Source: a virus. Taken from it: DNA of 64,000 nt. Positions within the stretch are counted from its first letter, which is position 1. Each line of letters starts with the position of its first letter. The stretch spans positions 10,288 through 74,287 of IMG/VR virus record IMGVR_UViG_3300022699_000232; one strand, written 5' to 3'. This document shows, one piece after another, positions 7,919 to 53,427 of this stretch. Made by a program: the position numbers and the translations under genes. The notes beneath the pieces were generated by a model. It had not been told where the DNA came from. It ran no database searches and was given only the letters and a program-made list of their open reading frames with translations.

Positions 7919-7997
7919 ACCTTGATTCTACTTGGGTCGACTCGTGCCGCCAGTTAGGATCGCCCAGGAAGACCCGGGGTTGGCGTGGTGCGGTCTC

Positions 7998-8882
7998 GTG
8001 AAAGAGAGAAAGACCGTGCTGATCCTCAGTGTTGACGGTGGCGGCGTTCGGGGAATCGCCGCGGCCATCTTGCTGCGGCGCCTAGAAGAAGAGGTTCCCG
8101 GGTGGATCGCGAAGGTCGATCTTTTCACAGGTGCGTCGACTGGCGGAATCATCGCGCTTGCGCTTGCCTACGGTCTCCATCCCGATGAGATCGAGCGCTT
8201 CTATCGTGCCGAACTTCCTGAGATCTTCTCTCAGTCTTGGTGGCGGCGGTGGATGGTGCTTTGGCGCGCCAAGTACAGCAACAAGGCGCTGCGCGAGTCG
8301 CTTAGGTCGGTCTTCAAGGACGCACGACTCGGTGATCTCGCACGAGAGACATTGATCTCCACCTACTTCTTGGGATCCAGGGAGCCCTTCGAGCGCGCGC
8401 ATCCTAAGTTCTACTCGCGGCGCCGCAATCCCAAAACAAAGCTCGCAGATCTTGCTCTCTGGACTAGCTCTGCTCCTACGTTCTTTCCGAGCGCAGATCG
8501 TCACGTCGATGGCGGTTTGTCGGCTAACAACTGTGCCGTCTGCGCCATGGCTTTCGCGGATCGTTACGGCGCGTCTTTGAGCGACATGACCGTGCTTTCG
8601 GTGAGTACGGGCCTCTCGCCAATGGTTCTAGAGGGTGGCGACCGAGGGCTCGCTTATTGGGGTCGATCCATTCCCGAGACGTTGATCGATGGTGGGGTCG
8701 ATGTTGCTGACTACCAGGCACGCCACTTCCTGGCCGACGAGGGGACGTATCATCGTCTCCATCCTGAACTTGGGGAGGAGATTCCCCTGGATGATGTCGC
8801 ACGGCTGGACGATCTCTGCGAGTTCGCAGAGAGCGTCGATCTTACTTCTGCTACTTCTTGGCTTGCGGCTCAGGTAGGCTAG
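7998..8882 (+). CDS. Patatin-like phospholipase
   Basis: ILSVDGGGVRG oxyanion loop, GASTG catalytic Ser, SAPTFF, DGGL catalytic Asp. Start uncertain (GTG 7998 preferred; ORF track uses 7932). Confidence 0.92.
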   Translation: MKERKTVLILSVDGGGVRGIAAAILLRRLEEEVPGWIAKVDLFTGASTGGIIALALAYGLHPDEIERFYRAELPEIFSQSWWRRWMVLWRAKYSNKALRESLRSVFKDARLGDLARETLISTYFLGSREPFERAHPKFYSRRRNPKTKLADLALWTSSAPTFFPSADRHVDGGLSANNCAVCAMAFADRYGASLSDMTVLSVSTGLSPMVLEGGDRGLAYWGRSIPETLIDGGVDVADYQARHFLADEGTYHRLHPELGEEIPLDDVARLDDLCEFAESVDLTSATSWLAAQVG

Positions 8883-8924
8883 AGGGTAATAGGCAGTAGT
8901 ACCGACGAAAGTCTGAGGTAACGC

Positions 8925-8933
8925 TGCTATAAT
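8925..8933 (+). promoter_or_regulatory. Extended -10 sigma70-type promoter upstream of the rightward structural operon
   Basis: TGCTATAAT (TGn + TATAAT) in the 105-nt gap, about 55 nt before ATG 8988. Confidence 0.55.
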
Positions 8934-8987
8934 GCTTCGGTCGCCACGACTTACGTCGTAACCACACTCCGCTCTTAGGGGTCGAGC

Positions 8988-11066: not shown

Positions 11067-11624
11067 ATGCGTCGCCTTTGCTACTGCACCGGAAGCGGGT
11101 CAACCATGGTTCGTTCGGAAAATTTCCGAGATGGCTATCTCGTACCGACGAGTGTGGGGCCTAAGCGTGCCGATGAGATTCAGCCAAATACCCCGGCTAC
11201 GCTAAGTGTTCCAGGCGTCGACGCTGACGGCCTCGTTGTCTATACGGCGAAGTACGGTGGGTCTGCTGGCAACGACATCTTCGTCTCCCACGAAACAGGA
11301 GAGACCGGGCCGGGGCACGAGAGCCGTCCGCTCGCCGTGAGCTTCGATCCCGATGATGAAGATGGCCGAGCTATCGTTGTGACGTTTGGCACGACGAGTG
11401 GGGGCTTTACTATGCTTCCGACTGCTCAACAGATTGCCGATCTAGTTAGCGCGGAAGCTGTGCTTCTCGACGTCGTGATGGTCGAGGCGGGCGGTGATGG
11501 GACAGGCGATGCAGGCGTCATCGACCCTACCTATCTCGGCGGAGGAGCAGACGACGGCGATTGGCGCAAGTTCAATGTCAACGGTGGGGACTGCATGAGA
11601 GTCAATGCGGTTGAGGTGATCTGA
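11067..11624 (+). CDS. Structural protein with a tail-sheath-insertion-like domain nested in a small Hint-like module
   Basis: Core VYTAKYGGSAGNDIFV...TAQQIADLV...LGGGAD; flanks TSVGPKRADEIQP and GGDCMRVNAVEVI match ORF 39348..39512. Confidence 0.65.
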   Translation: MRRLCYCTGSGSTMVRSENFRDGYLVPTSVGPKRADEIQPNTPATLSVPGVDADGLVVYTAKYGGSAGNDIFVSHETGETGPGHESRPLAVSFDPDDEDGRAIVVTFGTTSGGFTMLPTAQQIADLVSAEAVLLDVVMVEAGGDGTGDAGVIDPTYLGGGADDGDWRKFNVNGGDCMRVNAVEVI

Positions 11625-13084
11625 TGGCACAACCGTTTCTCGCGCTCCAGCATCGTTCGGGCGGCGCACCGCAAGTTTATCGACTCCCCGGTGTGTCTCC
11701 GCAGGCGCTTGGTGATCCTATTGGCGCGGCTGTTGAAGGCACAAGCTCCGACGATATGTGCATCTTCAACCGCGTCATTCAGTTCCAAGGAGATGTCTAC
11801 GCGGCGGTTAAGGGGGGTGTCTATAAGAAGGACGACCCAACTACCGATACTGGTGCATGGAGCTTGGACCACGCTTTCACGAACTTCACGACTTCATCTG
11901 CGATGGAGCACGCAGTATCCGGCATCTACCAGTTCGTGGATAACGGGGTAGAGAAGTTGTTTGTTTGTTGGCGCGCAGACACGTCCAACAGCACATGGAA
12001 TGCTTCTATCTTGGATGGATCTACTGGACTGTGGAGCGATGCCGGCGAGCAGGCGGCTGTTACGGCCGGCAATAACGAGGCTACAGGGGCTCAGATCATT
12101 TATCGGGGCGTGCTCTACTGGGGTCTGAGGACCAGTCAAGAGTTTCTTACGTTCGATCCTGTAGCACAGTCGCTTGGGACCATCTCGGCGATGATTGCGG
12201 ATGAGATCGGGTCCATGGGACTTTGTGTTTTCAACGACCGGCTTCTTACTTTTGGTCGAAACTCTTCTGGCAACGCAGCGCTCTTCGAACTCACTAGCAC
12301 ATTCAACGAACTATTAGAGGTCTCTCCGGCTATCACTCTCAACGGAGGCATGGTCGAAGCGCTTGCATGTCTCGTTCCGAGCCCCGACGGATCGGTTCTC
12401 TATGGAATTGTGGTGGAAAACGGTAGTGGTAGTCACTTCCTGAAGTTCATCGACACTGCCGGTGTGATCTCATTTGACTCTGACTTGACGAGTACGGTAT
12501 TGCCCGCCGCACGACGTCCCGGAATGGGCGACAACAATACCGAGACACGTTGGTGGGCTGCTTTCGATCAGGAAACGACGCCAGGCTCCGCAACGCTGCT
12601 GATCTACTTCTCTGGAAATGGGTCAGTCGGGACGACTGTCACGCAGTATCAGTTCGTGAACGAATCCACCGAACTCTCGCAGGTAGATGTCGGTGGAAGC
12701 GCTGCATGGGGTTTCTCGACACCGACCACTGGCGGCGGAGAACGGATCTTTACGCCCGGTGAGCTTCACATCTCGATTGTGCAGAGACTTGCGGCCATCG
12801 GCGGCGAAGCAGTGCGTTTCAAGTGCTACGGAGACCCCGGCGCCGTCAACAAGAACGTCAGCTTCCGGTTCAACACGGAAAACGAAGTACCCCTGACCCA
12901 GGCCACGTTGATCGGCACACCGTCGGTCATTTCGGGCGGTGCCGCTGCGCCAACACGCGTCGGAGATACGCTTCAAGGCGTCGAAGCTGACGGCGTCTCT
13001 GTCTACGAGACGATCTGGGATATCACGGCTGATGGTGTGACTGCCGGACAGCGCGCCCAGTTGGTCCCTAGGATCTTCATCTAG
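11624..13084 (+). CDS. Putative beta-propeller plus Ig-like virion protein (paralog family A, copy 1)
   Basis: NRVIQFQGDVYA, DLTSTVLP and IWDITADGVTAG motifs shared with 37900, 39523 and 40983. Confidence 0.75.
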   Translation: MAQPFLALQHRSGGAPQVYRLPGVSPQALGDPIGAAVEGTSSDDMCIFNRVIQFQGDVYAAVKGGVYKKDDPTTDTGAWSLDHAFTNFTTSSAMEHAVSGIYQFVDNGVEKLFVCWRADTSNSTWNASILDGSTGLWSDAGEQAAVTAGNNEATGAQIIYRGVLYWGLRTSQEFLTFDPVAQSLGTISAMIADEIGSMGLCVFNDRLLTFGRNSSGNAALFELTSTFNELLEVSPAITLNGGMVEALACLVPSPDGSVLYGIVVENGSGSHFLKFIDTAGVISFDSDLTSTVLPAARRPGMGDNNTETRWWAAFDQETTPGSATLLIYFSGNGSVGTTVTQYQFVNESTELSQVDVGGSAAWGFSTPTTGGGERIFTPGELHISIVQRLAAIGGEAVRFKCYGDPGAVNKNVSFRFNTENEVPLTQATLIGTPSVISGGAAAPTRVGDTLQGVEADGVSVYETIWDITADGVTAGQRAQLVPRIFI

Positions 13085-19100: not shown

Positions 19101-20135
19101 GTGCCGAGACAGATCATCGACGGCGCAGACGCCGTAGACGCTATTGCTGGTCTCAGCTTCCCCGATTTCGGCACCGGTGCGCTCGGCAACGTCACCATCG
19201 CCGCACCTACGGATGCTGCCGGCCGGAAGAACTACAGCGCTCTAACCATCGATCCAGGTGCCCATCTAGCTGTCACCGCCCGTCGCAAGCTCGTGGTGCT
19301 GGTGCAGGGAAATCTTACGGTGAACGGGCCCCTAACCGCTACGGGTCGGGGTGGTCTTGGCGCAGTCGGCGGAGACGGCGGCAACGCGGGCAGTTCCGCC
19401 TCTATTGCCAACCCAAAGAACGCTTCGGCATCCGGTGGCGGGGGCAGCGGTGGTGATGGGCAAGAATCGCTTGGTGCGGGCGGCGATGGTGCGTCCAGAT
19501 CAACATCTCTGCTTGACGGCGCAGGTGCAGGCACAGGCGGCCCGTCTCCATCCGGTGGCAACGGCGGCGTCATTTCAGCGCTTGACGCGACAGAAAGGGG
19601 GCGCATCGAGGATGATCTGGGCGGCTCTCCTTTCACTTACGCTCCTGGCGGCGGTGGCGGCGGTGGCGGCGGTACTGACTCTGGTGAGAGCGGTACTTCA
19701 GGACTAGGCGGTACGCCAGGATCTCAGACTGGTTCCGGTTTTGGTGTTGGGGAAAATGGCGGAGATGGTTCTGGTGGCGGTGCCGGCGGCGGGGGCGCTG
19801 GCGGCGCCGGCGGCGGGGAGCTAGAAGTTCGTGTCGGCGGCGATGTGTTGATCGACGCAGCAGCCGAGATCAGTGCCGACGGCGCTGTTGGAGGAACCGG
19901 CGGTGACGCCGGTGAACCCTCTGTCGCAGGTGCCGGCGGCGGCGGCGGGGGCGGCGCTGGAGGAATCATTCTTCTCATTTACCGCGGTACACCGACGAAC
20001 GTAGACGCTGCGCACGTACATGCTGACGGCGGAGCAGGTGGTAACGGAGGAGTCGAGACCGGCGGCGGTGGCGGCGACGATGGTTTCGACGGCTCCACCG
20101 GGGAAGACGGTTATGCTGTCTTCTTCCAGGTGTAG
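19101..20135 (+). CDS. Glycine-rich (polyglycine-II-type) adhesin-like virion protein, copy 1
   Basis: Many GGGGGG/GGAGG runs separated by short hydrophobic strands; paralog of 21074. Confidence 0.75.
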   Translation: MPRQIIDGADAVDAIAGLSFPDFGTGALGNVTIAAPTDAAGRKNYSALTIDPGAHLAVTARRKLVVLVQGNLTVNGPLTATGRGGLGAVGGDGGNAGSSASIANPKNASASGGGGSGGDGQESLGAGGDGASRSTSLLDGAGAGTGGPSPSGGNGGVISALDATERGRIEDDLGGSPFTYAPGGGGGGGGGTDSGESGTSGLGGTPGSQTGSGFGVGENGGDGSGGGAGGGGAGGAGGGELEVRVGGDVLIDAAAEISADGAVGGTGGDAGEPSVAGAGGGGGGGAGGIILLIYRGTPTNVDAAHVHADGGAGGNGGVETGGGGGDDGFDGSTGEDGYAVFFQV

Positions 20136-21073: not shown

Positions 21074-22075
21074 ATGCCCAGGCAAGTCACCGACGGACTG
21101 GAACTCACTGACGCGATTACCGCCGCAGGTCTAGACGCTCGATTCGGTAGCGGCGCCCTTGGTGATGGTACGATCTCCAGCCTCATGGAGGTTGGAGGCG
21201 AACTCAACTACAACAACCTCGTCGTTGAGACGTCTGGGGCTCTTATTGCGCTGGTAAGGCGCAAGCTCACTGTTCGTTGTCGAGCGAATTGTGACATCCA
21301 AGGCAGCGGGGCAATCCACGCTGACGGGCGCGGCGCTGTCGGTGTAGCAGGCGGTGCTGGGTTCTTTGGCGCTGGATCTGGCTTTTCCGGTCAGGCCGGC
21401 ATTGCCGGTTTTTCCTTCGCCGGAGGCGGAGGCGGAGGCGGGGGCGGCGCCACCGCGGCCGGTGGAATCGGCGGTGATCGTAGTCCGATGCTCAACGGAG
21501 GGACCAGCACCGGCGGTGCCCCGGGTACTGCCTCGGTGGATGGCGCGGCCCCGACTGCCTTGAGTGGCGACGTTCGTCCGCGGTTGGAAGACGCTCCGAT
21601 TTCGCAGATGTTGTTGTGGTCTTCGTCGGGTGGAAGCGGCTCCGGTGGTGCGGGCACCGGCTCTACTGGCTCAGCAGGTGCGGGCGGCGTCCCCGGAACT
21701 CAGACCGGCTCAGACCTCGGTGGTGGCGGTGCTGGTGGCAGCGGTTCCATGGGCTCTTCAAGTGGTGGAGGAGCCAGTGGTGCAGGAGCAGGCTCCATTG
21801 CGCTCTTCGTCGGCAGTGATCTCACGATTGACGCTTCGGCTCGCATCTCTGCCGACGGCGGAGATGGCGGTGACGGTGGTGCTGGTGGTGCTAATGATGG
21901 TGGCGCCGGCGGGGGCGGCGCTGGCGGCATGGTCGAAGTGATCTACAACACGAGCACAACCCCCGGCAACATCGATGCTGCCCACATCCATGCGAATGGC
22001 GGCGCTGGTGGAACTTCTTCTGAGGGCGACGGTGGTGCCGGCGAAGACGGTATCGCCGTGTTTAAGGAGGTGTAG
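21074..22075 (+). CDS. Glycine-rich adhesin-like virion protein, copy 2
   Basis: MPRQVTDG...FGSGALGD...RRKL...NIDAAHIHANGGAGG aligns end to end with 19101. Confidence 0.75.
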   Translation: MPRQVTDGLELTDAITAAGLDARFGSGALGDGTISSLMEVGGELNYNNLVVETSGALIALVRRKLTVRCRANCDIQGSGAIHADGRGAVGVAGGAGFFGAGSGFSGQAGIAGFSFAGGGGGGGGGATAAGGIGGDRSPMLNGGTSTGGAPGTASVDGAAPTALSGDVRPRLEDAPISQMLLWSSSGGSGSGGAGTGSTGSAGAGGVPGTQTGSDLGGGGAGGSGSMGSSSGGGASGAGAGSIALFVGSDLTIDASARISADGGDGGDGGAGGANDGGAGGGGAGGMVEVIYNTSTTPGNIDAAHIHANGGAGGTSSEGDGGAGEDGIAVFKEV

Positions 22076-40982: not shown

Positions 40983-42554
40983 ATGGCTACCGAATTCCTT
41001 GCGATGCACAACAAGTTCTCTGGCACCATCGGCAACGGTGTTGCCGTCTTTCGTGTGCTCAACGCAACTTCGGCCCAAGTCGGAAATGGGTTCGCCAGAA
41101 GAGAGCAGTTCTCCTCACAGTTTACCTTCGGGCTCCAGCGTGTCGTCCAGTTCAAAGGGGCCGAGGATCTCTATGCTGGGACTGGATCCGAGGGTGGTTC
41201 AGCCGGCGACGATGGTGGAGTGTATAAGTACAACCCCTCAACAAGCAATTGGGACCAAGTGGTTAGTGAGGGGAGCTTTACCGAGGGATTCGATACCACA
41301 ATGGGGCATCTCTTCGTGGGCCCTTACGTGGTATTCGTTAACGGCGAACCACATCTTGCTGTTCTAGCGCCCGGTAATAACAACGCTCGATTCCAGGGCG
41401 CCCGCTCGGTCGATGGTTCGACCTGGTCATTTTCGGCCGCATCCGATTTCTCTGGGTCTGTAGATGCCGAGCGTGAAGCGGACTGCTGGAACAGCCATGT
41501 CTTCGGAAACGCTATCTATACGTTCATCGAGGACGATGTCACCTTCTCAGCAACCGAGGGCTGGTTTGCCGTCTCTTATGATCCCGCAGCACAATCAGTC
41601 TCGCTTCACACGGTCGACTCCGGCTTGCACGGAGGCGGCGGCTCTAACAAGCAGGCGGCTGTTTGTTTTCTCAACGGACGACGATGGCTCATCAACTCGT
41701 GGCCCGGCGGCGGTGCGGACGAACCTCCGGTGGTTGTCGAATGGCCGGCGGGTCAGAACATTTCGTCCTCGCTTAATCGTTTGGTGCTTGAGTCTGGCGG
41801 TACTCCTTTTGGAAACAATCGTTGTGCATTATTCACCGACGGGACATTCCTTTACGCCCTCTACTACTACCAGAGTGTTGGGGACTCTGGTGGTGGCTGG
41901 CACATGATGAAGCTGCAAGAGAGTGGTGCCGGTCTTGCAATCGTGTCGGACCTGACCGATGTCGTACTTCCGGCCTCTGTCGGTCGAAATAGTGGTGCGG
42001 GTGGCCACTTCACTTGGATGTTCGACCAGGAAGTCAATCCAGGCGGTGTGCCTGAGATTCGTCTCTACCATGATTCTGGTGCGTCGTGGGATGTCTACAA
42101 ATGGAATGGTGACTCTGCTTTGATCGGTGCTGGCGGATCACCAAATGATTCTGGAGCCACTGATGGCATCATGATCCCTGGCGGACCAAACTCAGACGAC
42201 CAACCGATCTGGTGGTCCGACGGTCCCGATGGCGGTTCCGTCAACATCGAGTTTGAGCCGGCGACAAGCGGAGATGTAATCACGCCTGCGCTAGGCGGAG
42301 AGAGGCTGCGGTTCAAGATCTATGGACCGCTCGGAACTGAGACGGTAAACGTCAGAGTCTTCTTTGGCGAAGATGACGAATTTCAATTTCAGCAGGCCAG
42401 TCTCTCAGATGCTTCTCACGGCACCATCGTCAGTGACGAAATCCAGGGTCTCACGGCTGACGGTTCGACGATCTACGCCGTCACGGCCGGCTATCCCGGT
42501 GTTACGACCGGCGAACCGATCACAACGCAGTTGTACGTAGAGATCCAACCGTAG
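40983..42554 (+). CDS. Putative propeller plus Ig-like virion protein (family A, copy 4)
   Basis: QRVVQFKG, RSVDGSTW (Asp-box-like), DLTDVVLP, GGERLRFKIYG versus GGEAVRFKCYG in copy 1. Confidence 0.72.
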   Translation: MATEFLAMHNKFSGTIGNGVAVFRVLNATSAQVGNGFARREQFSSQFTFGLQRVVQFKGAEDLYAGTGSEGGSAGDDGGVYKYNPSTSNWDQVVSEGSFTEGFDTTMGHLFVGPYVVFVNGEPHLAVLAPGNNNARFQGARSVDGSTWSFSAASDFSGSVDAEREADCWNSHVFGNAIYTFIEDDVTFSATEGWFAVSYDPAAQSVSLHTVDSGLHGGGGSNKQAAVCFLNGRRWLINSWPGGGADEPPVVVEWPAGQNISSSLNRLVLESGGTPFGNNRCALFTDGTFLYALYYYQSVGDSGGGWHMMKLQESGAGLAIVSDLTDVVLPASVGRNSGAGGHFTWMFDQEVNPGGVPEIRLYHDSGASWDVYKWNGDSALIGAGGSPNDSGATDGIMIPGGPNSDDQPIWWSDGPDGGSVNIEFEPATSGDVITPALGGERLRFKIYGPLGTETVNVRVFFGEDDEFQFQQASLSDASHGTIVSDEIQGLTADGSTIYAVTAGYPGVTTGEPITTQLYVEIQP

Positions 42555-43931: not shown

Positions 43932-44999
43932 ATGGCCTTTGTCTACCCTGACCGAGTCAAGGAGCAGTCGTCTACTACGGGTACCGGCGACCTTACCCTT
44001 GCTGGGGCCGTTCCGGGGTTCCGCACCTTCGATACAGGCGTGGCGGTTGGCAACCAGACCTACTACACCATCGTCTTGGACTCCAACAACACCTGGGAAG
44101 TGGGTATCGGCACGCTCACAGGAAGTAACATCCTTCAGCGCACAACCGTCCTCGCTTCCTCGAACGCGAACCTCCTCGTCAACTTCGCTTCCGGAACGAA
44201 GATCGTCAGCGCTGTCGTTGCGTCTCAGTTCTTCGCTCAGACGCTTCTCACCTCAGCCCACGCTACGCTCAACCATTCCGGAATCCCCGGGGTCCCGGCT
44301 CCCGAGTCCTTCACCTCCGCCAGTCATGATCTCGTCGACCACACGGCAGCACCCTTCAATCTCCTCGACGTAACGGCACACGAGTCGGTCAATCACCTCG
44401 CTCCGCCCTTCAACTTGCTGGACGAGCCGACGCATGATCTGTTGGACCACACCGGTCTTCCGGGCGTAAGCAGCTTCGATTCGTCTGCTCACGCTACTAC
44501 TAACCACACAGGTCTTCCGGGTGTTCCGCCTCCAGAGTCTTTCACCAATGCGGTCCACGCTGTCACAGACCACGCCAGTATCCCGGGCGTGTTCTCGCTT
44601 GCGACTCACGCGGCGACTAACCATGCCGGAATTCCGGGTGTTCCCGGGGCGCTCCAGTTCGCGACGCACACGTTCGGTCCGACCTCGTCCAACATCTCCT
44701 TCTCTGTCGGGTTCACACCCTTCATGCTGGTCGTGCTTTACGAGCTTTCCGACACAGGAGGCGGAGTCGGTGTTGCATTCGGAACCAATAGCGGAGATCA
44801 GTCGACTGGCACTCTGAACTTCGGCGCTACGTCATCCTGGGAGCATATCCCCGAACGTGTGATCTCGTCGTCCTCTCAGAATCCGGACAACGTCATCTAT
44901 ACGCTCTCCACGTTCGGCGGGGGCACGGTCACGCTTACGAGTTCCGGCGACACCTCGGCCGACACCGTGAGCGGCAGAGTTTTTGTTTTCGGTAACTAA
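43932..44999 (+). CDS. Tail fibre protein with seven His repeats
   Basis: MAFVYPDRVKEQSSTTGTGDLTLAGA...WEVGIGT...LQRTTVLASSN, a common fibre N-domain; seven H-x3-[DN]-H units. Confidence 0.82.
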   Translation: MAFVYPDRVKEQSSTTGTGDLTLAGAVPGFRTFDTGVAVGNQTYYTIVLDSNNTWEVGIGTLTGSNILQRTTVLASSNANLLVNFASGTKIVSAVVASQFFAQTLLTSAHATLNHSGIPGVPAPESFTSASHDLVDHTAAPFNLLDVTAHESVNHLAPPFNLLDEPTHDLLDHTGLPGVSSFDSSAHATTNHTGLPGVPPPESFTNAVHAVTDHASIPGVFSLATHAATNHAGIPGVPGALQFATHTFGPTSSNISFSVGFTPFMLVVLYELSDTGGGVGVAFGTNSGDQSTGTLNFGATSSWEHIPERVISSSSQNPDNVIYTLSTFGGGTVTLTSSGDTSADTVSGRVFVFGN

Positions 45000-45013: not shown

Positions 45014-46981
45014 ATGTCGATCAGCGAATTTTCGATCTCTGAGGGCTCCGTTTCTGAGACGGAGGCGGGTTCCGGTGTCCTTGCCGGACCGTCGCACCAG
45101 TTCGATGCGGTGAATGTCAAGTTCCGCCACGGCGAGCGCTACATCTCGGATGCCGCAGACAAGAAGTTCTTGGGCATCCCAAGAGGTGTCTATCTCGGAT
45201 TCGTACCCTCTTTCGGCACTAACGATGTGCTTACTCTCTCGCCAGATCCCATGTTTGGCGTCTCGTTCGCTCGCGTTACGTCACAGGACGACCCGCTCTA
45301 CAGCGTGGATGTCTTCGTGCAGACAGACGTGATACTCGACTTTTCAAATCACAATGCGTTCCCTGTGAACGTCGTCTTGAAGACGCGAGGTGCTCTGGGC
45401 TTTCCTCACTCAGCCGAGATCGTGACTCAATCGGCGGCTCCTACTCAGCCGACCGAGATCTTGCTCGGCGTGGTCACGGCTCCTCAAACCATCAGCGTCG
45501 CGGAGCCGTTCAACCGCGATACGCCCTATGCCTATTCAGGCGCACCGCTCGGTTATGGGTTCATGAAGAGTAATGCGGTCGATGAGCTTCTGGCCGCCAT
45601 CGCCCTCAATGCCGAAATTGCCGACGCGCGCGTAGACCTGGCGGGGACGACTCAGGCATCCTTGGATGATCGTCTGGAGGCGGATGGTGATGCCTCTGCA
45701 ATGGCGGATCGACTGGGTAAGGAGACGCAATCCATCCTGGCGGGCGATTTCGTTCTCACCTCGCCGACCTCGGTCGTCAACATCAGCAGTGGGTTCGCTG
45801 CCTTCCATCGCAGCGCTGCCAGCCTAACACCTATCGAGGACTTCGAGGGATTCGCCTCCGAGACGCGTCCTGGTGCCGTGACGAGTGGCACTATCCCCTC
45901 TCCTTCACCAGCCGGTGCGATGACGGACAATGTTCGCAACGTCTGCGCGATCATCGATGCGACGACGCAAGCTCGAATTACCAGCGACGCGCGAGCGGTC
46001 GCGTTCGGACGTCTCAGTCTTGACGAGATCACACTATCTGGGACGGAGATCACGTTCACGAACTCCAGCACCACGGTTACCGGTGTCGGGACCCTCTTCA
46101 CATCTGAGGTGGAAGAGGGGGACATCATCCAAGACCCTGTGGGGGGCGGGCTTTACGAGGTTGCTTCGACGCCCGTCAGCGATACGTCGCTTACGCTGTC
46201 TGACCCGTTTCCAGGAACGACGACTCCTCCGGCAACGGCGCCGACGCTACGACGTCGATTCGAGTTGAACGCGCGAACGCGCACTGGGCCCGACTCAGAC
46301 ACGCCCTTCACCCTTCCGGCAAGTACGATTCGCGTCTTTTTTACGGCTTGGCGCAAGATCGAGGAGAGTCAGTTCGACTATCTGCCTTTTCTTTCCCGCG
46401 GCTTCGAAGAGGAACCGATTCCGACGGCTACGACCTCTCTCGAAGGCAAGGCGTTGCTGGCCTCCAACATCTCAGAGGGTCAAGCTGGATCTGTCTTTCA
46501 GGTGCAGCAACAAAGCGCGCAGGTCGGACCGAATCACATTCACACGATGGATTTCGATGGTGCTGTCCTCGGTGCGCCCGGCATCGCTGACATCACACAA
46601 CGTGGCCCCATCGGAGCGCCTGGACCGCCCGGCTCTGGTGGAGTTCCGGGTCCGGCAGGTCCTACCGGATCTACAGGAGTCGGTTTCACGAACTTCGATT
46701 CAGCGAATCTCTTCCGTGAGAGCGGACTCTTCCAGCACGCAGTCTTGGGGAGCGGTGCTCAGTACAGCTTTTCCACAACAATGTCTGGGACGGAGGTCTT
46801 GTTCCTGACCGGCGGTAACTCTGAATGGTACTCACCTTTCGTATTCGACTCCGACGATCATTGGCAGATTGACGACATCACCATCGTAAGTGGATTGAAC
46901 GTCCGGTTGGACGCACGCGTCCCGACCGGAAGCACTCCATCGGCTGAAGTACGTTTCTTTCTTAACGCGGCTACTAGGTAG
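45014..46981 (+). CDS. Collagen-segment fibre protein, paralog 1
   Basis: GIPRGVYLGF N-domain; ITFTNSSTTVTGVGTLF module; nine G-X-Y triplets at 46604-46684. Confidence 0.8.
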   Translation: MSISEFSISEGSVSETEAGSGVLAGPSHQFDAVNVKFRHGERYISDAADKKFLGIPRGVYLGFVPSFGTNDVLTLSPDPMFGVSFARVTSQDDPLYSVDVFVQTDVILDFSNHNAFPVNVVLKTRGALGFPHSAEIVTQSAAPTQPTEILLGVVTAPQTISVAEPFNRDTPYAYSGAPLGYGFMKSNAVDELLAAIALNAEIADARVDLAGTTQASLDDRLEADGDASAMADRLGKETQSILAGDFVLTSPTSVVNISSGFAAFHRSAASLTPIEDFEGFASETRPGAVTSGTIPSPSPAGAMTDNVRNVCAIIDATTQARITSDARAVAFGRLSLDEITLSGTEITFTNSSTTVTGVGTLFTSEVEEGDIIQDPVGGGLYEVASTPVSDTSLTLSDPFPGTTTPPATAPTLRRRFELNARTRTGPDSDTPFTLPASTIRVFFTAWRKIEESQFDYLPFLSRGFEEEPIPTATTSLEGKALLASNISEGQAGSVFQVQQQSAQVGPNHIHTMDFDGAVLGAPGIADITQRGPIGAPGPPGSGGVPGPAGPTGSTGVGFTNFDSANLFRESGLFQHAVLGSGAQYSFSTTMSGTEVLFLTGGNSEWYSPFVFDSDDHWQIDDITIVSGLNVRLDARVPTGSTPSAEVRFFLNAATR

Positions 46982-46988
46982 GAGAGCG

Positions 46989-48854
46989 ATGGCCGTCTAC
47001 CCACGCCAGGTTTTCACGCAGGAGAACGCTCTCGTTGGCTTCAACGAGGACTACAAGTCCTCTCCGCTCGGGAAGAAATTCGCCGGGCAGCCGAAGGGCG
47101 TATACGTGGGATTCGCCCCGACTACCGCTGGTTCTGTGCTGTCGCTGGAGACGGATACATCAGAGGGCTATTCGGTCGTAAAGGTCCCATCACAGGCTGA
47201 TCCAAGCGGTCTCGATATCATCACAGATCAATCCATCGCGCTTGACTTCAGCAGTCAAACCATCGGCGATTTCCCGATGCAGGTACTTGCGCGAGCAAGC
47301 TACATGGCAGACGGTAGTGTTCCGACAACAGCGGAAATCTTCTCGCGCTCGGGCAGTGCCACGCCGGCCTTCGACGAGGTGCTCATCTGCGTCGTCGATG
47401 GTCCGCCTGGAGCCATCAGCGCACGATTCGACGCATCTCTAGGTGAGCGCGATGAGCCGTTGGCGTTCTCCGGCGTCAACTTCGGCTTCATGCCTGGCGG
47501 GTCAATCGAGGATTTGCAGGCAGCGGCCGACATCGTCGACGAGGTCGTCGCCGCGAGGCAAGGGTTCGACGGGACCGACCATCCTGATCTAGATGCTCGT
47601 ATCTCCGAAGACTACAGCGCGGAGTCGATGGCGGGGCGTCTGTCGCCGCTTTTCAGAGCATTGCGCAGCAACGACTACGCGGTCTCCGCAGGCGATTCGA
47701 GTGTTGTCGTCTCCGGCTCGTTCACAGAGATCGACCGCGACTTCGGCCCGGAACTGACTCTGAGCGGGAACGGTGACGAGACGACCGTCGGCGCCGTTGC
47801 GGCGCCTAATGATTCGATCCGAAACGTTGCCATCGTCGTCGATGCCGATACGGGATACCGCCCCGTAGATGATCCGACGGATCGCCGCATCGTCTTTGCG
47901 CGTATAGAGGGTCCGAACGAGACCGCCGTTGGTGGTACGTGGACATTCACTAACGCGCTCACGGATGTAAGCGGGGCTGATGGGCAAGCAACAACCGAAA
48001 TGGAGGTTGGCGATACTATCCTCGGCGCTGACGGCAAGTACTACGAGATCGAGACGATCATCGACAACAACAACATCGAGCTTCGTACGGCTTACCAGGG
48101 TCCGACTGCGACGGTGGATACGCAGACCATCCGCCGTTGGCAACTGCGTCTGAAGAAGATCAACGACCTCAACGTAGAAGTCGATGCTTCCTTCGCATCA
48201 CAGGTTATCGTTCGATTCTTCTTCCCGGCATTCGTGTCGATGGAGCAAAGCAACTTCGACTGGAAGATGGCCATGCATACGGCAGGGGAGCGAGAGCCGT
48301 TGCCATCTGCATCTACGACTGTCCCAGGTGCCGTGAGGCTCGCTACCTCCGGCGCACGTCTCGGCGCCGTCAAAATCCAGAACGCTGGTGTACCTGTTGG
48401 CGGCGGACCCTTTCATACGATCAACTTCAGCGCTCCAAACGCCTCAGTTGTCACAGTTTCAGGGTCTCCTGGCGAGGTCGAAGTTGTTGAAATCGGTCCA
48501 CAGGGTGCTACCGGCCCCCCGGGGGCAAGCGGTGGCCCAGGTCCGCCGGGGGGCCCGGGTCCTGGTTATAGCGCCCTAAACACGTTCGAACTCAGTAGTG
48601 AGTTCGCCGGCGTTAGTGGGTCGGCTATGATGTTCTCGTTTACTCGGGATATGGGACACAACATCCGGTACTTACACGGCAATGTCGCTAGATTCCGAGA
48701 CTTCGGCTCTTTCGTTTCCACGCAAGACCCACTGGAAATTCTCGACGTCACCGCAGCTAGTGCGACGGAAGGGAAGATCGACGTCTCTCTCGGAACCTCC
48801 GGTTCCACAAACGATCATGCCGCTACACTGTTTCTTAGCTCGGCAGGTGACTAG
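46989..48854 (+). CDS. Collagen-segment fibre protein, paralog 2
   Basis: GQPKGVYVGF; eight G-X-Y triplets at 48495-48566. Confidence 0.8.
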   Translation: MAVYPRQVFTQENALVGFNEDYKSSPLGKKFAGQPKGVYVGFAPTTAGSVLSLETDTSEGYSVVKVPSQADPSGLDIITDQSIALDFSSQTIGDFPMQVLARASYMADGSVPTTAEIFSRSGSATPAFDEVLICVVDGPPGAISARFDASLGERDEPLAFSGVNFGFMPGGSIEDLQAAADIVDEVVAARQGFDGTDHPDLDARISEDYSAESMAGRLSPLFRALRSNDYAVSAGDSSVVVSGSFTEIDRDFGPELTLSGNGDETTVGAVAAPNDSIRNVAIVVDADTGYRPVDDPTDRRIVFARIEGPNETAVGGTWTFTNALTDVSGADGQATTEMEVGDTILGADGKYYEIETIIDNNNIELRTAYQGPTATVDTQTIRRWQLRLKKINDLNVEVDASFASQVIVRFFFPAFVSMEQSNFDWKMAMHTAGEREPLPSASTTVPGAVRLATSGARLGAVKIQNAGVPVGGGPFHTINFSAPNASVVTVSGSPGEVEVVEIGPQGATGPPGASGGPGPPGGPGPGYSALNTFELSSEFAGVSGSAMMFSFTRDMGHNIRYLHGNVARFRDFGSFVSTQDPLEILDVTAASATEGKIDVSLGTSGSTNDHAATLFLSSAGD

Positions 48855-48862
48855 GAGATCGG

Positions 48863-49906
48863 ATGGCCTTCGTATTCGCTGATCGCGTCAAGGAGACTTC
48901 CACTTCGGTGGGTCTTAGCAGCTTCACTCTCGATGGCGCTGCTGCCGGGTTCCGTACTTTTCAGGCTGGCGTTGGGAACGGCAATCAATGCTTCTACGCC
49001 ATCGAAAACGACAGCGACAGTACTTGGGAGGTAGGCATCGGGACTGTGAGCGGGGCGTCCTTGGCGCGAGACTCCGTCATCAGTTCTTCAAATGGAAACC
49101 TCCCGGTCAACTTCGCCGCCGGAACGAAGCAGGTGTTTGCGACCGAGGCGTCGGACTTCTTCAACAACGCGCTTGATGAGACCGCCCACGATCTTCTCGA
49201 TCACACAGGGCTTCCTGGTATTCCGGCACCGGAGAGTTTCACTTCTTCTGCTCACGCACTGACAGACCACACGGGACTTCCCGGGGTTCCGGTTGCTGAG
49301 ACGTTTACGTCCTCAGTTCACGAGTCGGTCGATCACACGGCTTCCCCTTTCGATCTGCTCGATGTTCCGGCGCACTCCTCTCTAGATCACACAGGTATTC
49401 CAGGAGTTGGTGGCAGCGAGACCTACGATCAAGCCGTTCACGATGCTGACGATCACTCCGGTGTTACGGCGATCCAACCGCCGTCCCAAGCTGAGGCTGA
49501 AGCAGGAACGGCCACGACAGCCCGTCTGTGGACTGCTTTGCGTGTTGCTCAGGCTATCGCCGCACAGACCGGACTTGAGGTCGTGGCCGACTTCTTCACC
49601 GCTGTCAACACGATCAGCATCTCGACGGGGTTTGTTCCGAAGATTGCCGTCTTCGCGGGTCGCTACGTCGGCCTAACTGGGGCACCTACAATCGGGTTCG
49701 CGCTCGGTACGGGCGGTGGAAATCAGGGTTGTACGGTGTCTGGTGGGCTGGAGGGTGTTTCTGGGTTCGTTGCCGCCGATTCCGGCGGAGACGCTGTTGT
49801 GGATGAAGCTCACGAAGTGACTACGTTCAACAACACCCAGGTGCAAGCGACTCAGACAACGGGTACTACCGCTTGGACTGGTATCGTATTCGTTCTCGGG
49901 GGCTAG
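48863..49906 (+). CDS. Tail fibre protein with five His repeats (paralog of 43932)
   Basis: MAFVFADRVKETSTSVG...WEVGIGT; SQAEAEAGTATT fibre motif. Confidence 0.82.
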   Translation: MAFVFADRVKETSTSVGLSSFTLDGAAAGFRTFQAGVGNGNQCFYAIENDSDSTWEVGIGTVSGASLARDSVISSSNGNLPVNFAAGTKQVFATEASDFFNNALDETAHDLLDHTGLPGIPAPESFTSSAHALTDHTGLPGVPVAETFTSSVHESVDHTASPFDLLDVPAHSSLDHTGIPGVGGSETYDQAVHDADDHSGVTAIQPPSQAEAEAGTATTARLWTALRVAQAIAAQTGLEVVADFFTAVNTISISTGFVPKIAVFAGRYVGLTGAPTIGFALGTGGGNQGCTVSGGLEGVSGFVAADSGGDAVVDEAHEVTTFNNTQVQATQTTGTTAWTGIVFVLGG

Positions 49907-49909
49907 TCC

Positions 49910-51838
49910 GTGGCAGGCGTTTTTCCTACCGCTTCGACACCTACTGCATCGACGTCGTCGCTCACAGCGCCGCCGCCTGGTCCCGGTACCTTCCCTTCGA
50001 TGACACTGTCGAACGAGTTTGTGAAGGTGAGGTTCTTTGAGGAGAACGCTGCTGAGGCCATCAATCGTCGCTGGCTTGGAATGCCTCGTGGCGTCTATCT
50101 AGGGTTCAACCCAAGTGTCTCTGCTGGCTCCCCTGTGCTCACACTGAGTGTTGACGCGAGCCACAATTTCTCGCTACTCAGAGTGCCCTCTGGCGTCGAA
50201 GCAGCGATGGTCGATATCTTCACAGCCTCGCCGATCACGCTAGATTTCACCGCCCACCAGGTATTTCCCGTCTACGTCCTCGCCACAGCCGATTACCGTG
50301 AGAACTCTCCTACGCAAGGACGCATCTTCACTCGTGCTGCCGGGCCCACGTCGGAGACGGAGGTACTGATCTGCATGGTCGACAAGTCCGGGGACGACCT
50401 CGTTGTTTCATCATTGTCTCCGACGACACGTCAGCCACCGGTCGCCTTCAACTCACAGCCTTACGGTTACATGCCGGCTGATTCCATTGACGACCTAGCA
50501 GCGACAAACGCTTCGGTTGCCGAGGTCATCGCCGCACGCAATTCCTCGTTCACCGGTCCGCACGCGAGCCTGGATGGTCGTATTGATGCTGACATCACGG
50601 GCGAAGCCATGGCCGACCGTCTTGGGCTACGGCTCGTTCATCTGATTTCTAATACCCATCTCCAGAGAACCGGCTCTTCGCCCAATGTTTCGGCTTCCTT
50701 CACAGAGACAGGTCGTGAGTTCGGACCCAACTTCACCATTGGAGCCGGCGGCAACGAGACTACAGAAGGTGCGGTAACCGATATCACTCGCGGGTTTTGC
50801 TTTGTGATCGATGCGCAGACGAAGAAGCGCATCGTCAGCGCTACGACCAAAGAGCCCGTATTCGGAACCCTTTCGTTCACCCAGACATCGCTTGGTGCGG
50901 GTAAGGAGATCCAGTTCACCAACGCTTCTACCGCCGTGAACGGTAACGGTACGAACCCGTTTGCTTCGCCGCTCCAAGAGGGAGATATCGTTCAAGGACC
51001 AGATGGACTCTTTTACGAGGTCGAGAGCTTCACGGATCCAGACAACGCTGTGCTGGGCGCTGCGTTCCAAGGAACCAGCGGTTCGATCACCAACTCACTC
51101 TTCAGGCGTTGGCTTCTGTTCCTTGCGACCGCGTCAGGCGGTGCCTTTTCCCTGTCATCTGCCACAGATATCCAGTTCGTCTTTCCATCGTTCTTCCGTA
51201 CTGATAGAGCCATCTTCGACGGCTACCTGCTAATCAAGCAGGATGGAGAGTCACCCTCGCTAGAGGTCGCAACTTCAACGGAAGCGGGTAAAGCACTTCT
51301 CGCTACACCTGGTGGATTAGTCGGATCAGTTCGAACCATCGAGGATTCGAATACTCCTATCGGAAACGACTTCCATACGCTCAACTTCATCTTCGGCGGC
51401 GCTACGAACGCCGGTAGTGGAGTGCTTAACGTTTCGGTTCCAGGGGCTACTGGTCCCGCAGGTACGCCATCGAATACCGGACCCCCTGGTGCAACTGGAC
51501 CTGCTGGATTCGGTTACTCGGTCAACAACTCCTTTGAGGGTTCAGCAGAGACCGGAGACACATTCACCGCGGTGGGTCCTGTTACCCTCTCGTTTACAAA
51601 CGACTGGACGTCTCCATCCTCTACACCGACGTTTGCATCCTTGTCGCCACGGTCTTACGCCCACGTAAGTGGTGGATGGGCTAAGATCAACGGATTCACG
51701 ACTGCTGGGTTCGAGCGGATTCACATTGACGAGCTAACAGACGTCGACGCTGATCGAACTCGTATCACTATTCGGATCCAGCCGGATCCTAATACGAGCC
51801 TGACGACGTTGAAAGCGTTCATGGGGGCGTCCCAGTGA
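49910..51838 (+). CDS. Collagen-segment fibre protein, paralog 3
   Basis: GMPRGVYLGF; G-X-Y run at 51443-51514 with one interrupted triplet. Confidence 0.8.
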   Translation: MAGVFPTASTPTASTSSLTAPPPGPGTFPSMTLSNEFVKVRFFEENAAEAINRRWLGMPRGVYLGFNPSVSAGSPVLTLSVDASHNFSLLRVPSGVEAAMVDIFTASPITLDFTAHQVFPVYVLATADYRENSPTQGRIFTRAAGPTSETEVLICMVDKSGDDLVVSSLSPTTRQPPVAFNSQPYGYMPADSIDDLAATNASVAEVIAARNSSFTGPHASLDGRIDADITGEAMADRLGLRLVHLISNTHLQRTGSSPNVSASFTETGREFGPNFTIGAGGNETTEGAVTDITRGFCFVIDAQTKKRIVSATTKEPVFGTLSFTQTSLGAGKEIQFTNASTAVNGNGTNPFASPLQEGDIVQGPDGLFYEVESFTDPDNAVLGAAFQGTSGSITNSLFRRWLLFLATASGGAFSLSSATDIQFVFPSFFRTDRAIFDGYLLIKQDGESPSLEVATSTEAGKALLATPGGLVGSVRTIEDSNTPIGNDFHTLNFIFGGATNAGSGVLNVSVPGATGPAGTPSNTGPPGATGPAGFGYSVNNSFEGSAETGDTFTAVGPVTLSFTNDWTSPSSTPTFASLSPRSYAHVSGGWAKINGFTTAGFERIHIDELTDVDADRTRITIRIQPDPNTSLTTLKAFMGASQ

Positions 51839-52434
51839 GGCATTATTTCGGCTACGACACCAACGGAGTGCTGCGGTCTGTTGAGGTCTACGGCCCCGCA
51901 GGTTGGCCTTCGTCCCACTGCGTGGAAGACCCTGACTGTCAGGAAGATGCTGTCACGAGTCTTCGTGAGGGCCGGGCCAACAACGCACCAGACGTAATCG
52001 ACTGGGTCCTTTTCGATTGTTCGTGCGATCCAGCACAAGGCGCGTTGCTCAAGGATTGCGTCTGCTACAACGCGGAATTTGCCGAGAGCTACGTCAACAC
52101 GCAGACCAAGACGCTCGTCAAGAAGCCTCTCCGAACTGTCCAACTCGACAATAAGACCATCTCAAACAACGAGACAATCACTCATCCTCCCGGGACGAAG
52201 GTTGTTCTCAAGATCATCTCAACGGGAATGCCGGACGGGGAGACGGCTCACTGCACCCAGAAGGGTGCTGTGGATCTAACGCTCGATGATGAGTGGGATC
52301 TCACCTTCGAGGGTGGGGTTACGGACGCGAAGACTCTCACAGCCCCGGCCCAGGGTACGAAGGGTGTTGTAGCTATCAGCGGAAAGATGATGCGCCCCAT
52401 CACGTTCTGCCTGCGCGGCTTCGAGGACGAGTGA
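51835..52434 (+). CDS. Cys-rich hypothetical protein, possibly a fibre assembly factor
   Basis: GTGA-coupled on both sides; HCVEDPDC, DCSC, DCVC. Confidence 0.65.
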   Translation: MRHYFGYDTNGVLRSVEVYGPAGWPSSHCVEDPDCQEDAVTSLREGRANNAPDVIDWVLFDCSCDPAQGALLKDCVCYNAEFAESYVNTQTKTLVKKPLRTVQLDNKTISNNETITHPPGTKVVLKIISTGMPDGETAHCTQKGAVDLTLDDEWDLTFEGGVTDAKTLTAPAQGTKGVVAISGKMMRPITFCLRGFEDE

Positions 52435-53267
52435 GCAAGATCGACGATATCCTGCCGCTTCCAGAGCAAGCAGACGTTCACCTCATCTGCCCCGATATCC
52501 TCGCCGTCAAGCGCATCGTTCCGTGGGGCGATGAACTGATTCGAGTCTCCGAGAACATCAACAAGTGGAAGCAATCCGATCAGGTTCATGCTGGTAACGC
52601 TGGGCCCGGCTACACTTCCGAGCACCGGACCAGCAGAAGCTTCTACGTCACGAGCGCTCATCCGGATTTCGGTCCGTGTCTCAGACGCTTCGAGCACGGT
52701 CTGATGCGCGCATTCCATACGGCCGCAGTTGCCTACAAGAGCTACAACTCAAGCCTCGTGGCGACCGACGACTCAGGCTACGAACTCCTTCGCTACCGCG
52801 AGGGGGAGATGTTCTCTGCGCACGTCGATACGATTGTGGGTCGCCAGAAAGCGTTTCGGCAGCTTAGCGCAGTTTGCTATCTGAATGCCGACTACAGTGG
52901 GGGCGAAACCTTCTTTCCGAGGCAGCAGGTCAAGTTCCGCCCGGAACCTGGAGACATCCTGATGTTTCCGTCTAACTTCTGCTATCCTCATGCTTCCCTT
53001 CCAGTAATCTCCGGTACCAAGTACGCTGTGGTGACGTGGTTCGTCGCCTACCCGGAGAGACCGCAAGAAGACAAGCAGGAGGTCGATGGTGAAGAGGAAG
53101 AGCCACTGGGCGCTGACGATGGTGATGATCCTGCTCCCGGTCACGAACGGGTGCGCATGGTTCGGGACGCCGCCGGAGGCGGAGCTTCTACAGGAGAACC
53201 GCAAGCATCTGGTCGAGAGCATTCGGCCTGCGCTAGTGGATGCGCTTCACAAGGCCAAGGGTCCTGA
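52431..53267 (+). CDS. 2OG-Fe(II) oxygenase, prolyl-4-hydroxylase-like
   Basis: LLRY...FSAHVD (HxD), SAVCYLNADYSGGETFF, PGDILMFPS, PHASLPVISGTKYAVVTWF (distal His and 2OG-binding Lys). Start GTG 52431 overlaps the upstream TGA. Confidence 0.9.
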   Translation: MSKIDDILPLPEQADVHLICPDILAVKRIVPWGDELIRVSENINKWKQSDQVHAGNAGPGYTSEHRTSRSFYVTSAHPDFGPCLRRFEHGLMRAFHTAAVAYKSYNSSLVATDDSGYELLRYREGEMFSAHVDTIVGRQKAFRQLSAVCYLNADYSGGETFFPRQQVKFRPEPGDILMFPSNFCYPHASLPVISGTKYAVVTWFVAYPERPQEDKQEVDGEEEEPLGADDGDDPAPGHERVRMVRDAAGGGASTGEPQASGREHSACASGCASQGQGS

Positions 53268-53427
53268 TGGAGAGCCTATCTACATCGACGCCTACCGAAC
53301 CGAGAAGGTGAACCTGCTCGACGAGATCATTCGTCAGAGCGCTCGCGTCGCTCCTACCGACGAGGATCAGGGGCAGTACACGCCGGAACCGCTTCCCTGG
53401 AAGCGCGACGGCGAGGAAGACGAGTAG
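53086..53427 (+). CDS. Putative lipoprotein
   Basis: CAGGAGG RBS; basic N-region, hydrophobic WALTMVMILLPV, then NG-C lipobox-like site (non-canonical). Confidence 0.65.
   Translation: MVKRKSHWALTMVMILLPVTNGCAWFGTPPEAELLQENRKHLVESIRPALVDALHKAKGPDGEPIYIDAYRTEKVNLLDEIIRQSARVAPTDEDQGQYTPEPLPWKRDGEEDE

Follow-up and report, generated by a model that had tools for sequence, protein, structure and literature searches.

Collagen-like necks in three paralogous fibre proteins of a large myovirus and a linked prolyl-hydroxylase-type oxygenase that may modify them

Introduction

Whether a bacteriophage can hydroxylate the collagen-like segments of its own fibres is the question raised by a 64,000-nucleotide stretch of viral DNA (positions 10,288 to 74,287 of the IMG/VR record IMGVR_UViG_3300022699_000232), which we call the window. 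It encodes three paralogous fibre proteins, termed A, B and C, each of which contains one short segment of G-X-Y triplets, and, in the same row of genes, a 2-oxoglutarate- and Fe(II)-dependent (2OG-Fe(II)) oxygenase. Reviews describe prokaryotic and phage collagens as unhydroxylated (PMC3368898, PMC8968730). Those without a hydroxylase show no preference for proline in the Y position (Y-Pro) and rely on proline in the X position (X-Pro) and on charge (PMC3368898, PMC8968730). An earlier reading of the window, made without database searches (the sequence-only reading), had proposed a dedicated fibre-maturation system in which the three fibres possibly assemble into an A-B-C heterotrimer. Here we analyse the collagen-like segments, the oxygenase and their relatives in other phages.

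Results

Three fibre paralogs each have one collagen-like neck

A (655 amino acids (aa), 45014..46981), B (621 aa, 46989..48854) and C (642 aa, 49910..51838) are encoded on the + strand and are mutually 33-34% identical over their whole length. The open reading frames (ORFs) and this full-length paralogy bear out the three co-linear paralogs of the sequence-only reading. Their annotation as fibre/receptor-binding proteins (RBPs) draws, moreover, on one-to-one orthologs for A, on orthologs for B, and on a monomer model and a profile match for C.

Each paralog has a single G-X-Y segment, the neck, which lies between homologous flanks: a short G-x7 strand precedes it and the motif F/Y-x-x-x-N-x-F follows it. 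The neck of A consists of nine triplets (residues 531-557, 46604..46684, + strand), with Y-Pro in GAP, GPP and GVP, and that of B of eight (residues 503-526, 48495..48566, + strand), with Y-Pro in GPP, GGP, GPP and GGP. The neck of C has eight triplet positions (residues 512-535, 51443..51514, + strand) and reads GAT GPA GTP SNT GPP GAT GPA GFG, with a Ser for the fourth Gly that leaves uninterrupted runs of three and four triplets. Thus, the eight to nine triplets that had been read in each paralog hold for A and B but not for C, whereas the prolines described in the Y position are found in all three necks (three in A, four in B and two in C). Runs of at least eight triplets are not expected by chance (0.000 per shuffled window); three were seen, of which one belongs to a poly-Gly ORF unrelated to the fibres. 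Gly-rich runs such as GENGGDGSGGGAGGGGAGGAGGGE occur in the ORFs at 19683-20117 and 21332-21703, in the 19.1-22 kb region, and are of the polyglycine type, not collagen-like.

Pattern scans of IMG/VR and of Joint Genome Institute (JGI) metagenomes yielded 19 distinct related phage genomes or genome fragments. The Gly periodicity is maintained in all their orthologs: about 55 deeply diverged orthologous necks have Gly at every third residue. The residue at the break in C is Ser in eight and Ala in nine of 20 orthologs, and Phe, Asp and Gly in one each. Ser and Ala are the Gly replacements that a triple helix tolerates best, and the fact that the break is nearly always one of the two supports a real triple helix over a loose linker. 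In searches with the Pfam Collagen family (PF01391, threshold 27.2 bits), A and C reached 15.1 and 13.5 bits, respectively, and B gave no match; the family model spans 60 positions, more than such short runs can fill. Collagen-repeat character is present in the conserved Gly at every third residue and in the proline content of the necks, with about 0.46 X-Pro and 0.13-0.26 Y-Pro per triplet. A search of the ESM Atlas with the C-terminal part of C returned only sub-threshold viral clusters labelled 'collagen repeat' (0.88).

The linked oxygenase is of the prolyl-hydroxylase type

C overlaps the gene of a Cys-rich protein (199 aa, 51835..52434, + strand), which in turn overlaps the oxygenase gene (278 aa, 52431..53267, + strand). 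Both are GTGA overlaps, as described before, and can be read directly in the sequence (GTG at 51835 with TGA at 51836-51838, and GTG at 52431 with TGA at 52432-52434), each with a purine-rich stretch before it. The oxygenase matches PF13640 with 57.9 bits (cut-off 27, E 2.2e-15) and PHROG 61, '2OG-Fe(II) oxygenase', with an E of 9e-30, and a search of NCBIfam gave sub-threshold dioxygenase matches only. The catalytic core (about residues 109-206, 52755-53048, + strand) contains the HxD...H...K signature, whose residues H131, D133, H187 and K197 are invariant across nine oxygenase orthologs; together with the PF13640 match, this substantiates the enzyme family that had been assigned. Among sequence matches in the Protein Data Bank (PDB) P3H1 ranked best, accompanied by the prolyl-4-hydroxylase (P4H) of Bacillus anthracis, and PBCV-1 P4H, PHD2 and LH3 ranked lower.

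A structural model based on the nine orthologs has a confident core, with a predicted local distance difference test (pLDDT) score mostly >83, and the residues N-terminal of the catalytic core are part of the oxygenase fold. The top Foldseek matches of this model are 3gze, 2jig, 7zsc, 5c5t, 4iw3 and PHD2 (E 4e-9 to 1e-7, probability 1.00). First among them is the algal P4H in complex with a peptide substrate (3gze, E 4e-9), and the B. anthracis P4H is also matched. A search for the extra parts of the animal collagen P4H (C-P4H) found a single Pfam domain in the 278 aa and no match of the P4Ha_N type. Within the prolyl-hydroxylase branch, the oxygenase is of the small, microbial kind with a single domain, and its fold does not point to a particular substrate.

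In the subclade of the window the fold is followed by a tail of about 70 low-complexity residues (53061-53267, pLDDT <50), which may have arisen by accidental read-through or be a genuine extension of the protein. The protein ends at about 205-219 aa in the relatives L008, L010 and L012. The conserved 113-aa gene g113 (53086..53427, + strand) overlaps the tail by 182 nucleotides in another frame; it is a separate gene in L008, and it directly follows the Cys-rich gene in the phage without the oxygenase.

The oxygenase is optional in the fibre clade

In all 19 relatives, one-to-one orthologs of A, B and C lie in the order seen here and precede the Cys-rich gene, which in 14 of them is directly followed by the oxygenase. 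Co-occurrence of the trio and the oxygenase, the check suggested by the sequence-only reading, is complete for the trio and partial for the enzyme. IMG/VR scans with the profiles of B and C recovered no relatives beyond those already found. The oxygenase is absent from the syntenic site in five genomes, namely L004/L005, L006/L007, L116, L009 and a phage represented by L111, L108 and L020, whose overlapping parts are 100% identical. Searches of the whole of the complete 275-kb genome of L005, which has terminal repeats, with PF13640, PF13661 and the oxygenase profile gave no match; for the other four phages, absence was checked at the syntenic site or in a partial record only.

The outgroup L013 (6446-10762) has a single fibre homolog of 820 aa with five triplets (GGT GGT GPT GPP GPG), then the Cys-rich gene and then two tandem, diverged copies of the oxygenase. 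Moreover, when compared with 32 other viral homologs, the fibre-linked oxygenases group separately, and the topology of their cluster resembles that of the fibre tree. We infer from this that the enzyme was ancestral to the clade but optional in it, with about four losses across the five genomes.

The wider oxygenase family comprises at least 595 viral stretches, and among the best 80 of these loci only three have a collagen-like ORF nearby, none of which has Y-Pro. A general association of these oxygenases with collagen was rejected on this ground. The link to collagen is a property of the fibre clade and not of the oxygenase family.

Neck composition differs between phages with and without the oxygenase

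Every neck triplet was scored per genome, and the 14 enzyme-bearing genomes were compared with the five that lack the enzyme. With the enzyme there are 0.257 Y-Pro per triplet, compared to 0.127 without it (Mann-Whitney p 0.02), and 0.124 charged residues per triplet, compared to 0.370 (Mann-Whitney p 0.006), the genomes in both tests being related to each other. The frequency of X-Pro does not differ significantly (0.46 with and 0.48 without the enzyme). Outside the necks, the proline content is 0.062 with the enzyme and 0.058 without it, and that of charged residues 0.161 and 0.171, respectively; the GC content of the locus is 0.60 and 0.625. Thus, only the necks show the contrast and, as regards proline, only their Y position does. 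It is most evident in the phage represented by L111, which belongs to the subclade of the window. Its B neck reads GIQ GDK GED GTV GAQ GEP GEV GPG, whereas that of the window reads GPQ GAT GPP GAS GGP GPP GGP GPG. The contrast between the two groups is the pattern to be expected if Y-Pro is useful only where it can be hydroxylated. The necks of L113 have 0.29 Y-Pro and 0.08 charged residues, from which its phage would be predicted to carry the oxygenase.

Domains of the fibre proteins and a homotrimer model of A

Matches to PHROG tail-fibre families cover residues 342-408 of A. The model of C has an N-terminal beta domain (residues 30-167), helices (192-238), beta domains (240-430), the neck and a C-terminal beta-sandwich (539-641); residues 450-533 are modelled with low confidence. 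Residues 29-180 resemble the N-terminal shoulders of homotrimeric RBPs and TssK (HFTV1 fibre, Z 7.3; Mtd, Z 7.0; phage 1358 RBP, Z 6.8; TssK, Z 5.1-6.2). The region of about residues 310-400 matches the N-terminal domain of the F2-pyocin side fibre in a PDB profile search (E 1e-8), as well as many phage fibres and PHROG tail-fibre families. Finally, residues 538-642 resemble H-type lectins (2ccv, Z 7.3, root-mean-square deviation 3.8, 88 aligned residues; 3wmp, Z 7.1; 2w94, Z 7.0), with no match in sequence; the H-type lectin domain, known from Helix pomatia agglutinin and the C-terminal domain of discoidin, is a trimer-forming beta-sandwich of six strands and about 100 aa. A structural Z below 8 may reflect a common arrangement, and both the shoulder and the lectin-like head are tentative assignments. 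Foldseek with the whole fibre model gave nothing convincing (best E 7e-4, TM 0.1), only matches of single domains.

Proteins of 317-337 aa in L128-L133 (e.g., at 1086-2090 and 2950-3960 of L132) share only their first about 100 residues with A, B and C, at about 34% identity. The N-terminal domain of the three fibres looks like a modular, reusable anchoring domain.

A homotrimer model of residues 495-655 of A reached an ipSAE of 0.79, compared to 0.00 for the best control. Contact agreement was at least 91% and partner pLDDT at least 79 in three runs. All of residues 529-558 are in three-way contact in this model, and much of the head is in the interface, too. The pass mark applied here is reached by 20 of 30 solved homo-pairs and by one of 23 single chains, a calibration that is only rough for the A trimer because an alignment of our own and three copies were used. 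The model supports trimerisation, short of proof.

Neck lengths change independently in A, B and C

An in-register heterotrimer of the C1q type needs necks of equal length, which were found in none of the genomes. The lengths for A/B/C are 27/24/24 residues in the subclade of the window, 29/24/24 in L002, 27/27/24 in L004, L006 and L116, 28/27/24 in L008 and 25/24/24 in L009, L010, L012 and L118. They are unequal within every genome: B gained a triplet (24 to 27 residues), and C stayed at 24. Moreover, the neck of A in L009, L010, L012, L118 and L124 consists of four triplets, one additional residue and another four triplets, a conserved register shift that affects A alone. Insertions of about 70-135 aa are likewise confined to single paralogs, to A in L004 and L006 and to B in L009, L010 and L012.

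The other genes of the row and of the window

The genes between 43.9 and 53.4 kb lie on a single strand in the order small1, A, B, small2, C, Cys-rich, oxygenase and g113, and no sigma-70-like promoters or terminators above expectation were found inside the fibre region. The sequence-only account lacked small1 (355 aa, 43932..44999, + strand) and small2 (347 aa, 48863..49906, + strand), which lies between B and C. The two are paralogs with 43% identity; small2 is found only in the subclade of the window, and small1 has no match in Pfam or PHROG. Both contain three to five repeats of H-[TSA]-G-[LI]-P-G-V-P, about 19 residues apart, and in small1, where the repeat has the general form H-x-G-[LI]-P-G-V-P, we count five motifs, three of them of the type GxPGxP. 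The histidines are reminiscent of the His motifs that bind metal in fibre tips, and the repeat amounts to X-Pro-Gly in its minimal form. We also considered whether the oxygenase might act on the GLPGVP motifs of small1 and small2 instead and rejected this, since the motif counts do not track the enzyme (L011, which has the enzyme, has zero to one).

The Cys-rich gene occurs in all relatives, whether or not they have the oxygenase, and its product has 39 homologs in the protein collection. No match was found in Pfam, a PDB profile search or the ESM Atlas, and specifically none to thioredoxin or protein disulfide isomerase (PDI) in Pfam and the PDB. In the distant phage L026 the gene follows three fibre genes of about 300 aa each that resemble small1 and small2 (7337-10004), with neither collagen nor oxygenase. 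This arrangement indicates that the Cys-rich protein is a component of fibre clusters in its own right.

Just upstream of the fibres lies the gene of a 523-aa protein (40983-42554), homologs of which are also found upstream of the fibres in several relatives. It has a distant paralog 29 kb away (11624-13084), with 26% identity over 526 residues.

The window has about 58% GC and covers the part of a large myovirus genome that encodes structural proteins; the 74-kb record is estimated to be 26% complete. The window encodes a T4-type portal protein, whose gene is split by inteins, and a prohead protease, as well as a tape measure protein, a spike of the gp5/VgrG type and a tail-collar fibre. A tblastn search with A against 50,697 deposited phage genomes gave no match, which leaves the phage without a cultured relative. 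Nor did relatives of the fibres turn up when the genome contigs of GTDB were scanned, and thus no prophage or clue to the host.

Discussion

The observation that prompted this analysis is confirmed, with a correction for the neck of C. The sequences themselves show how the genes are built, their paralogy and conservation, the family and catalytic residues of the enzyme, its optional distribution and the contrast in composition, whereas the triple helix, the homotrimers, the substrate and the chemistry are proposals. A, B and C would be ancient paralogous receptor-binding fibres of a large myovirus with a T4-like portal, each most likely forming its own homotrimer. Such a fibre would consist of an N-terminal anchor of the RBP-shoulder/TssK type, middle beta domains, a collagen neck of 24-27 residues and a beta-sandwich head of about 100 residues, which may be lectin-like. 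The fibre genes probably form one late operon with the conserved Cys-rich protein, to which most relatives add a monomeric P4H-type oxygenase. This enzyme would most likely hydroxylate Y-Pro in the short necks, either ahead of trimerisation or in the course of it, and raise the stability of the necks. Lineages that lost the enzyme retain their necks, with Y-prolines replaced and charge gained, which is how unhydroxylated bacterial collagens are stabilised. We consider it close to an even call that the fibres are homotrimers with collagen necks whose Y-prolines are likely hydroxylated by the linked enzyme. That the necks are the first collagens of a bacterial virus to be stabilised by 4-hydroxyproline, and that the loss lineages re-engineered them with charge, appears quite possible but somewhat short of probable.

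Several results weigh against hydroxylation of the necks and must be set against the composition contrast. The complete 275-kb relative keeps its necks, some of them with Y-Pro, and has no oxygenase anywhere, which means that hydroxylation is not required. The fibre tree provides only four phylogenetically independent contrasts, a number with which a sign test cannot reach 0.05; averaged, 2.3 of them go the expected way and 0.1 the opposite way for Y-Pro, and 2.8 and 0.0, respectively, for charge. The two groups also overlap, since L107 (0.12 Y-Pro per triplet) and L109 carry the enzyme and are low in Y-Pro, and the necks of L121, another carrier, are rich in charge, with 0.40 charged residues per triplet. 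With four contrasts and no significance the composition contrast is suggestive, and it fits hydroxylation of the necks. Against the overall reading stand, furthermore, the middling fold matches of the fibre domains (Z about 7), the compatibility of the A homotrimer model with mixed trimers, the rarity of collagen-like ORFs near other members of the oxygenase family, and the range of targets of the P4H fold, which also acts on EF-Tu, HIF and Ser-Pro repeats and, in LH3, on lysine. As for the dedicated fibre-maturation system of the sequence-only reading, a coupled and co-inherited P4H-type enzyme and necks whose composition tracks it speak for such a system, but the enzyme is not an obligatory part of it.

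The oxygenase could act elsewhere, on the Cys-rich or small proteins, on host EF-Tu or a ribosomal protein, or on a residue other than proline, in which case its position would reflect late co-expression only. The diversity of its structural relatives (Pseudomonas PPHD, 4iw3, on EF-Tu; PHD2 on HIF; algal P4H on Ser-Pro repeats; LH3 on lysine) would fit this, as would the best 80 loci of the wider family, the necks that persist without the enzyme and the up to three GxPGxP motifs in the small proteins; the role of viral P4H genes has, moreover, been called cryptic (PMC9301287). Such a target elsewhere is at odds, however, with a contrast confined to the necks and the Y position, and the fibre-linked enzymes form a cluster of their own that tracks the fibre tree. 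Furthermore, the GLPGVP counts do not follow the presence of the enzyme, as in L011, and the Cys-rich protein is equally conserved in phages that lack it. We see a substrate outside the necks as a real but rather doubtful possibility. It is improbable that the G-X-Y stretch is a flexible Gly/Pro linker that forms no triple helix, with an unrelated oxygenase next to it. The sub-threshold Pfam scores of A and C, the low confidence of the C monomer model at residues 450-533 and the shortness of the runs, broken in C, would all be in line with a linker. A linker should, however, tolerate changes in length and phase, whereas Gly occupies every third position in the orthologous necks, 17 of 20 orthologs of C have Ala or Ser at the break, the trimer model of A packs the whole segment, and runs of this kind are not expected by chance.

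Co-assembly of A, B and C into a C1q-like heterotrimer with a hydroxylated collagen neck, as the sequence-only reading had considered, is very improbable in the light of our comparison. It would explain why 19 of 19 genomes have kept all three genes one-to-one, tightly coupled and without a change of order, why their heads are not swapped, unlike those of many host-range cassettes, and why the neck flanks are homologous among them. Against this stand neck lengths that vary independently and are never equal within a genome, the one-residue register shift in A alone in one subclade, and large insertions that hit either A or B only. In addition, a single fibre gene precedes the same downstream genes in the outgroup L013, the homotrimer model of A clearly outscores its controls, and the structural look-alikes of the fibres are homotrimeric. 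We infer instead that A, B and C form triple helices as separate homotrimers, as proposed above.

The closest known enzymes bear on the proposed reaction. The P4H of B. anthracis (3itq, 5hv0, 5iax), like the phage enzyme, is a small single-domain microbial P4H with HxD...H...K, is matched at E 7e-6 to 9e-6 with only about 17-19% identity and also by Foldseek, and hydroxylates collagen-type peptides in vitro (PMC8968730). B. anthracis also has BclA, a collagen-like surface fibre with short repeats and a C-terminal trimeric head, which is a further likeness to the phage fibres. Its P4H gene, however, is not in an operon with the presumed substrate, and the natural substrate is debated, whereas the phage gene is coupled to the fibre operon. 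vCPH of PBCV-1 (5c5t) is likewise a monomeric P4H, encoded by a virus and sharing the fold of the phage enzyme (Foldseek E 5e-8, target TM 0.67), but its host is a eukaryotic alga and its gene is not linked to a fibre. The peptide substrates that Eriksson et al. in 1999 are said to have found for the PBCV-1 enzyme were Pro-Ala-Pro-Lys-type repeats, not G-X-Y. vCPH is thought to modify proline-rich proteins of the virus itself. Animal C-P4H, an alpha2beta2 enzyme (7zsc), and P3H1 (8k0e) share the catalytic fold and residues with the phage oxygenase (P3H1, E 3.5e-6; C-P4H-II, third in Foldseek). The chemistry of C-P4H, conversion of the Y-position proline of X-Pro-Gly to 4-hydroxyproline, is the one we propose for the phage, but the phage oxygenase is without the peptide-substrate-binding domain and the PDI subunit of the animal enzyme.

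On the side of the fibres, the EPclA-D proteins of Escherichia coli O157:H7 prophages resemble A, B and C in having an N-terminal anchor, a collagen helix and a C-terminal trimerisation/binding domain, and they form homotrimers (PMC3368898). Their collagen is much longer and unhydroxylated, shows no preference for Y-Pro, is stabilised by X-Pro and charge, and comes with no encoded hydroxylase (PMC3368898). The necks described here, in contrast, have eight to nine triplets, and their Y-Pro content in enzyme-bearing genomes approaches that of animal collagens. For bacteria, Iyer et al. (2010, PMC2938197) proposed that dioxygenases modify the collagen-like and tail-collar proteins with which they are co-encoded. 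The bacterial enzymes are members of the beta-hydroxylase and PhyH families and lie in operons with sulfotransferases (PMC2938197), whereas the present case concerns a P4H-type enzyme in a phage structural operon, with a comparative signal of loss and compensation. What is new is that true G-X-Y necks are candidate substrates in a phage, together with a co-inherited enzyme that has been lost repeatedly with a shift in neck composition. In a limited full-text search of the literature we found no report of hydroxyproline in a bacteriophage virion.

P4H-like genes rank with the commonest 'auxiliary' genes in phages from aquatic habitats. The locus offers a defined enzyme, three candidate substrates of 24-27 residues and, for comparison, sister phages without the enzyme whose necks differ. 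If hydroxylation of the necks is true, some viral oxygenases regarded as 'metabolic' would be reclassified as enzymes of virion maturation, and small self-contained pairs of P4H and substrate would be at hand for producing hydroxylated recombinant collagen in bacteria. The clade would then also represent a natural experiment in two ways of stabilising a triple helix.

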